DNA from: Pseudogymnoascus verrucosus
Lineage: Eukaryota
NCBI GenBank assembly: GCA_001662655.1
Contig: KV460241.1
Direction: 5' to 3' (one strand)
Length of the DNA stretch: 64,000 nt
Shown: in pieces, positions 26,135-31,201 of the stretch
Layout: each line of letters starts with the position of its first letter
Position numbering within the stretch: the first letter of the stretch is position 1
Made by a program: the position numbers and the translations under genes
Notes under the pieces: generated by a model
What the model saw: only the letters and a program-made list of their open reading frames with translations
Told to the model about the DNA's origin: nothing
Databases searched by the model: none

Positions 26135-26387
26135 GGCGGGATAATAAGATAGCTTTGCTTCATTTCGTGTAGGAAGGGTTAGAGCCGGTGCGTTGGGGGT
26201 ACAAGCGTATACTTTGCAGCATTATTTTTAATAGTCTCACTTCATTTCACTGCGAGTTTCACGGTCTTTCCATCACTGTGAGAGTTTCATGTGTCATAAA
26301 GCCATCGATTGGTACTATCAACTACGAAGCACATCATTGACTCCATTCCCTTGTACAAGCACCTCGCTCGCCATCCCGAATCAGCAT

Positions 26388-27078
26388 TTAAGCCTGGGTG
26401 GTCTTGGCGGCAGCCTGGTTGGGGTTGACCTTCTTGCCGTCCTTGTTGTAGCGAACACGTGGGGGAGGAGCACGGTTGCGGCGGCCCTCGCGGGAGCGGA
26501 CACTATAGGCACCATGTCAGTACATATATTCGTTTACTTACTACGGGCGGATCTAAGGGTTGAAGCCCGAAGTTCGACGCCCGACCAAGGTTCATCTCAA
26601 GGATTGACATACCGGACAATCTTGCCGTGAATGGCGCAAGAGACACAGTATTGCAGCTTGAGGTACATCTTGGGGACAGTGTATTCAGGGAACACCGAGG
26701 CGTCCGAGATATCACCTGCGAATTGTCAGCGAATTGTCCATTGGTGAAGTATGGTCCTCCCTTCTGGTCCCTTCTCTGTTGCACTAGTATTCGTAGAAAG
26801 CTCGTACGCAGAGATAGAGCCCCAGTAGGTCGTAGGGTAAGAACGTACGGATGGCGGCAGACTCGACCATGTTGCGGATGGTAAATCTCTTGATTGCCTT
26901 GTCCTTTGGGGTGCAACGGGAGCAGTTGGAGCAGCGAATCGGGTTCACGTGTCCACGTCCATTCTTGTTACGTCCACTATAGGCCTCGTCGTTAGTTCCG
27001 GTTCTGTTTGGCTTGTCCAATGCGATGGTGATAACCACGAATCGAGGAAACATACTTGGACGCGCGCTTCTTGACCAT
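26388..27078 (-). CDS. RPS26: 40S ribosomal protein eS26
   Basis: [18 protein letters not shown]...[18 protein letters not shown]...[12 protein letters not shown]; three coding-region introns plus a 5'UTR intron at 27090-27142. Confidence 0.97.
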
Positions 27079-27239
27079 TTTTGCGGATTCTAATAATTCA
27101 ATTAGAAGCTGTTATAACATCCACTGCCCAGTCGGTGCTTACTGAAATGTTGTCTATTTCAAATCGTTGAGTTGTCGTGCTTGTCGAGGTTGGTTGTCGT
27201 CACAAATTCAATAATTTCAGATGCGACAGGGCAAATGCT

Positions 27240-27305: not shown

Positions 27306-27529
27306 GCCAAAATTATACGCGATCCATCGTCCAGATCAACGAATTTCCTCTCCAACCCACTTGCGACCGCTCAGGAAGACAATAAGGTTGTCTAGGTATG
27401 TGAAAACAATTTACTTTTCCCTTTGCCTTGTCTTTACGACGAGGCTTTCACAACCAGCAAACGCAATTACGAACGATGAGTTGTGAACCTACAACTTCTC
27501 GTTCCCCGCCGCCGAAGCCGATATACTAA

Positions 27530-28102
<573 letters not shown>

Positions 28103-28279
28103 TGAAGTAGCTTCTGATATGGTGGAATATGTATCATAGCATACTACAATACAGTTGCTACCAACCCTAATTTGTTCATGATTTTACTCTGTGACTTCGA
28201 TTGATCTAGTTCACCCGTAATGTCCAGAATATCCGCTCATCATATGGCCCATTTGCCACTGGGCTCTATCCTGACCCTT

Positions 28280-29744
28280 TCAAACCTCCTCGCCTGGGAA
28301 TCCGTTTTTCAAGTTCTCGTACTTCGTCTCTGGGAATTCCAAGCAGTTCTCCTTCTGATCCAACGTCCCAAGGTCCCCCGCAACGGCCTTGATAATGCTC
28401 TTGTCGCCCTCACCATCCCCGCTGCTCTCCCACCACATCGCACCGCCCAACCCCACCTTCTTTATCCAAGCCGTCTTCCTCCTTGCCGCCTCCACCGTAT
28501 CATAGGTAACCAAAATCCTCTTCTCTTCATGGTAGCAATAGCTGCCCTCGGTCTCCTCATCCAACTTCTCGACCGCACCCTCCAGCGGCAGCTTCTTGAA
28601 ATCATGCACCCCATTCTCCCAAGTCCCCTGCCCGACGCCACTATACGGCTTTCCGAGTCCATCGGTATTTTCAAAAGCGCGGCCATAAAGCGGCATGCCC
28701 AAGACGATCTTGTCCGACCTCACTCCATGGGAAGTGTAGTAGTCTATGGCTTTTTGAGAACTGAACGGGGTACTGGCGGGGTTGCTCTGGGATGGGAATA
28801 CATTGGCCTGGTGGCCTGCATTCGTATCCCACGAGCCAGCGAAGTCATAAGCCATCAAGTTCCAGAAATCCAGATAGCGATCCATGCCCGGGAGATCCAT
28901 GTTATTGAGGTTCTGCTCTCCAGCGGGACTGGCGACAGTGAGTTCGAAGTGGAATGGCGTGGAGAGGGAAGCGCCATAAGCGTCAAGGGCAGAACGGACA
29001 GCTTCAAGTAGGAGCACGTAGTGTTGTCCTTCCTCGGGGGACTTAGGGTACTCCCAATCAATATCTATCCCGTCGAGGCCGACGGTTTTGAGAATATCCA
29101 CGCAGCTAGTGGCAAACTTCTGGCGCCCCTCAGGAGTAGATGCAGGTGCAGCAAAGTTGGAAGAATAGGTCCAGCCGCCGATGGAGAGGAGAATCTTAAG
29201 ATGGCGATTCTTCCTCTTGAGAAGGTTGAGTTGCTTGAAACAGCCGTAAATGTTAGTCCCAACATCGTTCCAGGAGTCCTTCTCATAGTGTTTGTCTGTA
29301 TCAGACCATGGGTCGGTCAAAAAGCTGCGAATATTTAGTAATTATTCTCAAAGATAGCAATTCTATATATCCATCGATGACAATGCGGGGTATAAATGAG
29401 GGGCAGTCTGGGCGTTAACCCAAAGACATCCAAGGACAATGAGTAGGCGAATGGAACATAAACTATGCCTTTGGAAAGCACAGTCTTGACTGTAAACTTT
29501 GGGCATATGCTTTGAAAGGTTTGAATGCTGATGGAAACCGAATACTTACACTTCCCCGCTCTCCGGCCGAACATTGGCGAAGGCGTACAATACGTGTGTG
29601 AGCTTGTCTGCTGGAAGGTCCTGGGGATTGTGATTTCTGCCATAAATAGCCCCTAACACTCATCAGCGTGTCATCTATGCATCTATTGTAGTTGAAAAAC
29701 ATACAGTTTGCAAAGTATGCAATGGATCTGTAGTTGCCGCTCAT
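28280..29744 (-). CDS. Chitinase, glycoside hydrolase family 18 (fungal subgroup A)
   Basis: Exons 29744-29705, 29652-29550 and 29324-28280. [19 protein letters not shown], catalytic [23 protein letters not shown]. The AUG-initiated form has no signal peptide (see findings). Confidence 0.96.
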
Positions 29745-30271
29745 CTTGATTGGTGTAGATGAGTATTCACCTCTTATGAAAGGCTCTGGAAAATAGTTCC
29801 CAAAAATCGATAACAAGGTGCCAGCAAAAAGGGTAAATATGGCAGATATAAAAAAAACTGTTCTAATTGAGGAAGCCAGCTTGTATGTGGTGATGTGAAG
29901 GTGTTTATGGTTTGTTGACGTGGCGGTGCCCACACGAGGTTACTATAGTGGGGGTGTGAGATCTCCACATCGATGATGAGTATTTGAGGCACAGTTTCTT
30001 GGCTACAGCCCGCCATGAAAGCGCCACGCCCAAGTTCAGCTATGAATATTGAATATGTACAGTATTTTCTCATACAAACTCAGCCGTGTCTATGTTCGTC
30101 CGTCTGCAGTCCCTTACGCCATTTGTCATATTTACAAGCGCCTTCCATGCTTCAATCCCGTGAAGTCCATTCCCTGACAATGGCTCCAATTATATCTAGC
30201 ACAGTAAAGCCAGTGCTCTATTTTTTGCTCCAGTTCCCAGTGATATGACCCTGATATGATTCTTCTCAGTA

Positions 30272-31201
30272 TCATTTGCTACTGCGCACATCAGGAGGAG
30301 GTAGTAGTTTCTGGGTGGGTACATGACGAGGGTTCTCAGCCTCATGGGCCAGTTGCTCCCGAGTTCTCAAAAACTCATGTACTCTCTCATTTTTGTTAGC
30401 ATTCATAGAGGCCTCTCTCCGTCGCCTCATGAGTTCTTGGCTCATATCCCTATGTAGGGCATCGATTTGATGTGTCAAGCTTGAGGAGAAGTTATCCACC
30501 ACCCTGTTTTGCCCAACGAACCCGATCGTACCGAATAAAAGAATTAATACAGCAAACACGCCGTTAGAGAAGTATATCGGGTCTTGCTTTTCGTTCCTGT
30601 GGTGCCATTTCTCCCAGTCTTCCCAGGTCGCGTTGTATCTTGGTCCACCAGGGCCACCCTCTCCACTTCTGCCAGAATATGGTGGGGCCCAGCTACCATG
30701 TTGTGTAGCCTTGTCTGATTCTCCTTGCCATCCTGTCCCATATGCATCATATGCAGCTCTCTTGGCCGGATCGGAGAGTAAGTTGTTCGCGGCCACAATA
30801 AGCCGATATCGCTCGAGCTTCGTTGCGTCGGATATCTCGTAGTCATAGGAGCTGCTCTGGCTGAGCCGATCCGGGTGGTAAATCTTCACCAGTTCGTAGA
30901 AACGACGCTTTGAATACGGCGATCCTTTCTTTTGGTTAAAGATCTCGTAGGGTGTAGGAACCGCGTTGGCTGACTTGACTTCGGGCCACGGGATACTTGG
31001 CTGGTGCGCATCTCTACTGTGCCCATCTGCCACTACAGCGTATGCCCTGGGTCCTGTAACTTTCGGCGGGGTGGTCGAAGTTCTAGTGAATGAACCGTTT
31101 TGTTGGCGAAGTCGTGACGTAGCTGACGACGAAGCTCCCGTGGAAGCTCCAATTCCTTTCGCGCATGCTGATGACAGAGCAATTCCAGCCTTCTTCAGCA
31201 T
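30272..31201 (-). CDS. J-domain (DnaJ) protein, mitochondrial Jid1-like
   Basis: TPYEIF...LVKIYHPD...AANNLLSDP J-domain, a C-terminal TM segment and a presequence-like N-terminus. Confidence 0.85.
   Translation of the reverse strand: MLKKAGIALSSACAKGIGASTGASSSATSRLRQQNGSFTRTSTTPPKVTGPRAYAVVADGHSRDAHQPSIPWPEVKSANAVPTPYEIFNQKKGSPYSKRRFYELVKIYHPDRLSQSSSYDYEISDATKLERYRLIVAANNLLSDPAKRAAYDAYGTGWQGESDKATQHGSWAPPYSGRSGEGGPGGPRYNATWEDWEKWHHRNEKQDPIYFSNGVFAVLILLFGTIGFVGQNRVVDNFSSSLTHQIDALHRDMSQELMRRRREASMNANKNERVHEFLRTREQLAHEAENPRHVPTQKLLPPPDVRSSK

Follow-up and report, generated by a model that had tools for sequence, protein, structure and literature searches.

The stretch of DNA analysed here (the window) comprises 64,000 nucleotides of contig KV460241.1 from Pseudogymnoascus verrucosus. 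Its minus strand carries a group A GH18 chitinase, a gene of three exons and 395 codons counted from the AUG at 29744. The part of exon 1 below this AUG lies at 29704..29744, exon 2 at 29550..29651 and exon 3, which encodes the catalytic domain, at 28280..29324. The introns of 52 and 225 nt are visible as joints in contigs from a relative ∼90% identical to the window: both the 29651/29704 and the 29324/29550 joint occur in X1, and the first also in X4. No run recorded as RNA contains this stretch; X1 and X4 are presumably RNA, which their spliced joints support. Exon 3 matches PF00704 (E = 1e-75), the sole Pfam family found there, with no binding module, and the DxDxE motif is intact in the 395-codon model. 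This large exon is 97% identical to P0001, which is annotated as a 395-aa protein of Pseudogymnoascus sp. and itself matches the solved structures 1w9p, 6igy and 1d2k at E values of ∼1e-156 each. The closest solved relatives are group A enzymes; these matches, together with the domain, the DxDxE motif and the lack of a binding module in the window gene, place the chitinase in group A (class V). No N-glycosylation sequon was found in the 395-aa domain.

The upstream neighbour is a J-domain protein gene (30272..31201, minus strand; its PF00226 match, E = 4e-06, falls slightly short of the curated cut-off), and the two genes (chitinase at 28280-29879) are adjacent across Pseudogymnoascus. Gene callers sometimes fuse them into models of 799–811 aa, and spliced contigs span both, so that overlapping or read-through transcripts are possible. 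The plus-strand gene at 27500-28105, converging on the chitinase 3′ end, we take to be a ubiquitin-ribosomal protein fusion gene, and the minus-strand gene at 26300-27180, divergent from it, is presumably ribosomal-protein-like. The same genome holds a broken chitinase copy (L004; G000:C44:93646-94677) with 10 TAG and 6 TAA stops, a pattern that suggests repeat-induced point mutation.

The AUG at 29742..29744, where the annotated leaderless form of 395 aa begins, has a strong context (AAG-ATG-A). As the initial annotation of this DNA had observed, the upstream frame is open and free of AUG. It runs for 65 codons before reaching a TAA at 29942, and ATG is absent in every frame between 29970 and 29744. 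The upstream start put forward in that annotation, a CTG at 29877..29879 on the minus strand, lies exactly 45 codons above the AUG in the same frame and has A at −3 and G at +4 (AAG-CTG-G); of the 13 near-cognate codons that the open stretch has in frame, it alone combines the two. Initiation there would add the 45 residues originally described (29745..29879, minus strand), which comprise a short basic n-region, a hydrophobic core and a polar spacer. The peptide has one Arg followed by a 21-residue uncharged hydrophobic run (long-form residues 7–27; 29799..29861, minus strand), a candidate signal peptide or signal anchor. Its best 19-residue Kyte-Doolittle mean is 2.28, and residues 2–29 of the long form are predicted to be helical in a single-sequence structure model. 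The extension is single-copy in the genome, and a Pfam search with it returned no family. Further up the minus strand, an out-of-frame ORF of 21 codons with a weak-context ATG (29905..29970) ends above the CTG; it is a uORF only if transcription begins above it. A helper hairpin was also considered at 29730-29900, where the RNA fold gave z = −2.19 with 6 of 200 shuffles as good, a signal too weak to claim.

The 135 nt of the extension are T-rich (52 T). When they were base-shuffled 20,000 times, only 0.3% of the products were both open and equally hydrophobic. A scan of the window found only 2 of 1170 ATG sites with a purine at −3 to have an open, ATG-free leader of 45 codons with a 19-residue Kyte-Doolittle mean of at least 2.0, one of them being the chitinase AUG itself. 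Since shuffles and scan so rarely reproduce the extension, T-rich composition is ruled out as the sole cause of the open hydrophobic frame.

Orthologous loci were collected at the DNA level in one metagenome scan, which kept 80 loci, 11 near-duplicates being removed before a quick tree was built. In this tree the orthologous Leotiomycete/Sordariomycete clade comprises 21 loci and the window, with 84% support; in a second quick tree the corresponding proteins have 100%. An in-frame, open, hydrophobic extension is kept in 19 of these 22 distinct loci; L028 is cut by a contig end, leaving 18 complete extensions. The search for stops and frameshifts that the initial annotation had called for thus found the frame largely kept and broken in 3/22, by a frameshift in L021, an in-frame stop in L030 and absence of the extension in L038; at these loci true loss and assembly error look alike. 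L021, the nearest locus outside the genus (1930-2125), keeps CTG-GCT and a recognisable n- and h-region, and because of the frameshift initiation at this CUG would produce an upstream ORF that overlaps the chitinase frame. Its state represents either recent loss or assembly error. Where the extension is complete, the n-region has a net charge of +1 or +2 in 17/18 loci, and the cores are 15–23 residues long. The spacer after the core is variable and, in Neurospora, rich in Ser/Thr, as might be expected of a lumenal stalk; no conserved cleavage motif was found in the extension alignment. In L049 (1734-2293), the chitinase Met is preceded, in a shifted frame, by a long region of Gln/Pro/Glu repeats, with no hydrophobic stretch nearby.

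The first start of these loci takes two forms. Seven of the 18 complete loci open the extension with AUG, and in all seven a pyrimidine (C or T) stands at −3, a weak context. Secreted paralogs served as controls: 11 were picked by eye, of which 4 have a further in-frame Met, and all 11 have A or G at −3 of their AUG (Fisher p = 3e-5, for loci that are not independent). Outside the clade, the first AUG again has a pyrimidine at −3 in 7 of 10 two-Met loci. Among the other 11 loci, 10 have a near-cognate codon with A at −3 (CTG in 5, GTG in 4, ACG in 1), 39–56 codons above the AUG, against a chance expectation of 0.23 per locus; 8 of the 11 combine A at −3 with G at +4 (chance 0.057). The search zone of 39–56 codons was chosen after inspecting the data and the loci are related, and the p-values are for this reason optimistic. 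L056 has an open frame and no qualifying start, the CTG of L075 lies a few codons lower than in other loci, and in L022 another AUG stands in frame 22 codons upstream of the CTG. In the Fusarium-like L094 (1-268), an AUG-free hydrophobic extension has an ACG flanked by A at −3 and G at +4; nearly all Fusarium models among those listed are of the 399-aa short form. Hypocreales may use ACG as the upstream start.

Ten of the 12 Leotiomycete-side loci were aligned as DNA, L056 and L075 being omitted because their start falls outside the column concerned. Mean column identity is 51%, and the frame, the hydrophobic core and the NTG column are all kept. At the 5′ end, no columns are invariant except those with the T and G of the candidate start codon; its first base is C, G or A, the encoded residue being Leu, Val or Met. 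Given that TG is invariant and the first base variable, selection appears to act on the start codon rather than on the amino acid. The sister loci L026 and L087 (97% support) have a weak AUG and a GUG, respectively, at the same aligned position. The second start is constant, with A at −3 of the downstream AUG in 18/18 complete loci. Between the two starts, ATG in any frame is absent in 16 of the 18; 2 were seen, against 8.3 expected from codon shuffles and 23.9 from base shuffles, and 10 of the 11 secreted-paralog leaders contain at least one. The comparison suggests a case wider than originally claimed, with a family-wide design in which weak AUG, CUG, GUG and ACG interchange.

The Leotiomycete orthologs also have in common a GCCAC motif, which lies 45 nt above the CTG in the window (29920..29924, minus strand). 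Over the window and L021, L023, L026, L031, L051, L057, L069, L075 and L087, its distance to the first start downstream is 45–86 nt. It stands at 131 nt in L056, is absent in L022 and occurs in 10 of 57 control windows. The motif is probably a promoter or leader element. A second element, AGCC-N7-9-TGGAGC, lies further up and in L031 and L075 forms a short inverted repeat. There may be a likeness to Crz1-type sites.

Protein models of homologs were classed as extended when at least 45 residues precede the first catalytic-domain motif. By this measure 120 homologs divide into 41 extended, 56 short and 23 without the motif. The second Met, at the domain start, is kept in 40 of the 41 extended models, and a single Met lies between the two starts in 2263 residues. 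Three of the 41 begin with a residue other than Met, two of them Helotiales-like. A second search added 113 proteins, of which 28 are extended (22 with the second Met; these 28 include single-start secreted paralogs), 68 short and 17 without the motif. Within the orthologous clade, one protein, from Piedraia, no longer has the second Met. When 60 aa from the N-terminus of L084 were used as a query for homologs, no match was returned. Long and short models exist for one and the same gene in Aspergillus section Nigri (447/398 aa), Neurospora (510/401), Pyricularia (456/396) and Lachnellula (446, partial/394). Because databases hold the gene both with and without its extension, secretome predictions for this chitinase family are unreliable. 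The Aspergillus cluster annotated as "endochitinase B" falls in the same FastTree clade as the window gene (97%), apart from An08g09030; its section Nigri members (398/447-aa models), named by annotation only, begin the extension with AUG. The 6IGY sequence matches An08g09030 (CfcB), a secreted paralog, and not A. niger ChiB. The Pyricularia cluster represented by P0244 and P0291 is the one with models of 456 or 396 aa. For MoChia1, the available text of PMC13213659 gives a length of 397 aa and a predicted signal of 26 residues; it resembles the short forms of the window chitinase's family in length.

From these features we infer CUG initiation, ER entry and the ratio of forms: by leaky scanning, one gene most probably gives two chitinases, the minor one targeted to the ER and the major one cytosolic. 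A minority of ribosomes would initiate at the CUG at 29879 and produce a form of 440 aa, which the basic n-region and hydrophobic core of ∼20 residues would direct into the ER with the catalytic domain lumenal. That form would then be either cleaved and secreted or retained as a type II membrane protein. Most ribosomes would scan past the CUG, encounter no AUG on the way and initiate at the strong one at 29744, giving the cytosolic form of 395 aa. Weak AUG and strong-context CUG, GUG or ACG would be two routes to a leaky first start, and the clear path to the strong second AUG would catch the remaining ribosomes. The two-isoform reading of the initial annotation, with a long CUG form and a cytosolic AUG form, thus gains support from comparison of the loci. 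Cleavage and anchoring appear about evenly probable, with a slight lean towards the anchor because the cores are long (15–23 residues); core length and charge fit a type II signal anchor.

Yeast SUC2 invertase likewise provides secreted and cytosolic forms of a hydrolase from one gene that differ by the signal peptide; these are chosen by transcription start and are both AUG-initiated, unlike the CUG proposed for the chitinase. A corresponding arrangement at the present locus, in which a long mRNA holds the CUG and a short one begins inside the extension, is improbable. It would suit the 528 nt that separate the stop of the upstream gene from the chitinase AUG, and alternative transcription starts back up dual-start genes in Cryptococcus, according to the available text of PMC7049704. 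The X1 and X4 contigs run across both neighbouring genes and so cannot show a transcription start. Two transcripts, however, would need neither the weak first start found in 17/18 loci nor ATG-free extensions, and the conserved upstream motifs lie above the extension, not within it. Choice of transcription start and leaky scanning can coexist.

Slightly less credible is that the extension is an untranslated relic of an ancestral signal peptide, its frame held open by a T-rich, AUG-poor leader. Comparison within Pseudogymnoascus bears on this. Four fused gene models (three distinct sequences) translate the extension region free of gaps, with 35–40 of 45 residues identical and K-L-A-S kept at the start; the full-length unfused models among those listed all begin at the AUG, as a relic would have it. 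Among the listed differences between the ∼90% identical relative and the window (in positional order, 40 of 109 and 12 of 37), the extension has 12 substitutions in 135 nt and no indels, the 298 nt above it (29880-30177) have 22 substitutions and 10 indels, and positions 29865-29905 are unchanged. The relative gains a stop 11 codons above the CTG. Within the genus the substitution rate of the extension is thus not below that of upstream DNA (12/135 versus 22/298), and ∼15 codons above the CTG are likewise well conserved. The synonymous-biased changes proposed in the initial annotation did not materialise, the relative having 4 silent and 8 non-silent base changes in the extension; contigs of X23 and X24 barely cover it. 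This ordinary rate, the lack of synonymous bias and the breaks in L021, L030 and L038 are what a relic would leave. By contrast, conservation of frame, core and NTG column over Leotiomycete distances, the conservative nature of the non-silent changes in the hydrophobic core and the rarity of matching shuffles argue for a translated extension.

Least likely is an upstream AUG exon (ATG at 29970, donor GTAACC at 29943, acceptor AAG at 29880) spliced into the frame, with the CUG unneeded: the join is in frame on paper and fused gene models splice near here, but the candidate intron (29943-29880) has no branch consensus and an upstream exon would not account for the invariant TG or the A at −3. 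No such exon was found, and it is disfavoured because X1 and X4 contigs, from runs of two studies and spliced at chitinase introns, cross 29704-30500, extension included, with no joint, bearing in mind that contigs drop rare variants and may miss a minor splice.

Leaky scanning from the CUG, the preferred reading, has parallels in other systems. CUG and AUG starts in one mRNA reportedly give proteoforms of the neuronal pentraxin receptor with different localisation (10.1101/2024.02.16.580719), in a mammalian protein unrelated to chitinase. Swaps between weak AUG and near-cognate starts are described for fungal dual-start tRNA synthetases (DualAUG/DualNCC) in the available text of PMC7049704. 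The chitinase resembles these genes in having a weak AUG or strong near-cognate start, a targeting sequence and a strong in-frame AUG. The window locus itself has the DualNCC arrangement, with a strong-context near-cognate codon above a targeting-like sequence and a strong downstream AUG with no AUG between; its conservation agrees as well, with weak-AUG equivalents in relatives and 3/22 loci broken. The difference lies in destination: the synthetase extension leads to the mitochondrion, whereas that of the chitinase, a hydrolase of the cell wall, resembles a signal or anchor for the ER. The genome-wide survey in the same source, in its available text, reports that signal peptides with an alternative start after them were not enriched, and the word "chitinase" is absent from its text supplement.

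In Neurospora extracts, conserved near-cognate starts are functional, and across Pezizomycotina cpc-1 keeps CUG/ACG starts that are in frame and have a good context, comparable with those of the chitinase (PMC5487733, available text). The cpc-1 case differs in its long, uORF-tied extension on a transcription factor, with no targeting signal mentioned in the available text on it. A literature search turned up no fungal chitinase described as having a CUG or dual start; subscription papers or gene-number tables may contain one. The mechanism is known; the target route and the family would be new.

Like the window gene, Aspergillus ChiB and CfcA are group A GH18 chitinases annotated as leaderless, and they occur outside cells (available text of PMC3527191 and PMC4309609). 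A. niger and A. nidulans ChiB have no predicted signal peptide, and A. nidulans ChiB is the major extracellular autolytic chitinase, whose exit route, whether through non-classical secretion or through lysis, is called open (PMC3527191, available text); CfcA appears in culture filtrates at higher pH (PMC4309609, available text). It is a tentative suggestion, somewhat short of an even chance, that the entire ChiB/CfcA-like orthogroup of Pezizomycotina inherited the two-start design from its ancestor and that its "leaderless" autolytic chitinases use the ordinary secretory route. A conserved leaky upstream start offers a third, testable answer beside non-classical secretion and lysis for export of ChiB-type enzymes. 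If the proposal is true, a leaky-initiated and unannotated signal or anchor form would carry Aspergillus and other autolytic chitinases to the wall, non-classical secretion would be unneeded, and start-codon stringency would set the ratio of cytosolic to surface chitinase during starvation. Filamentous fungi would then offer a case in which dual targeting from a near-cognate start leads to the ER instead of mitochondria.
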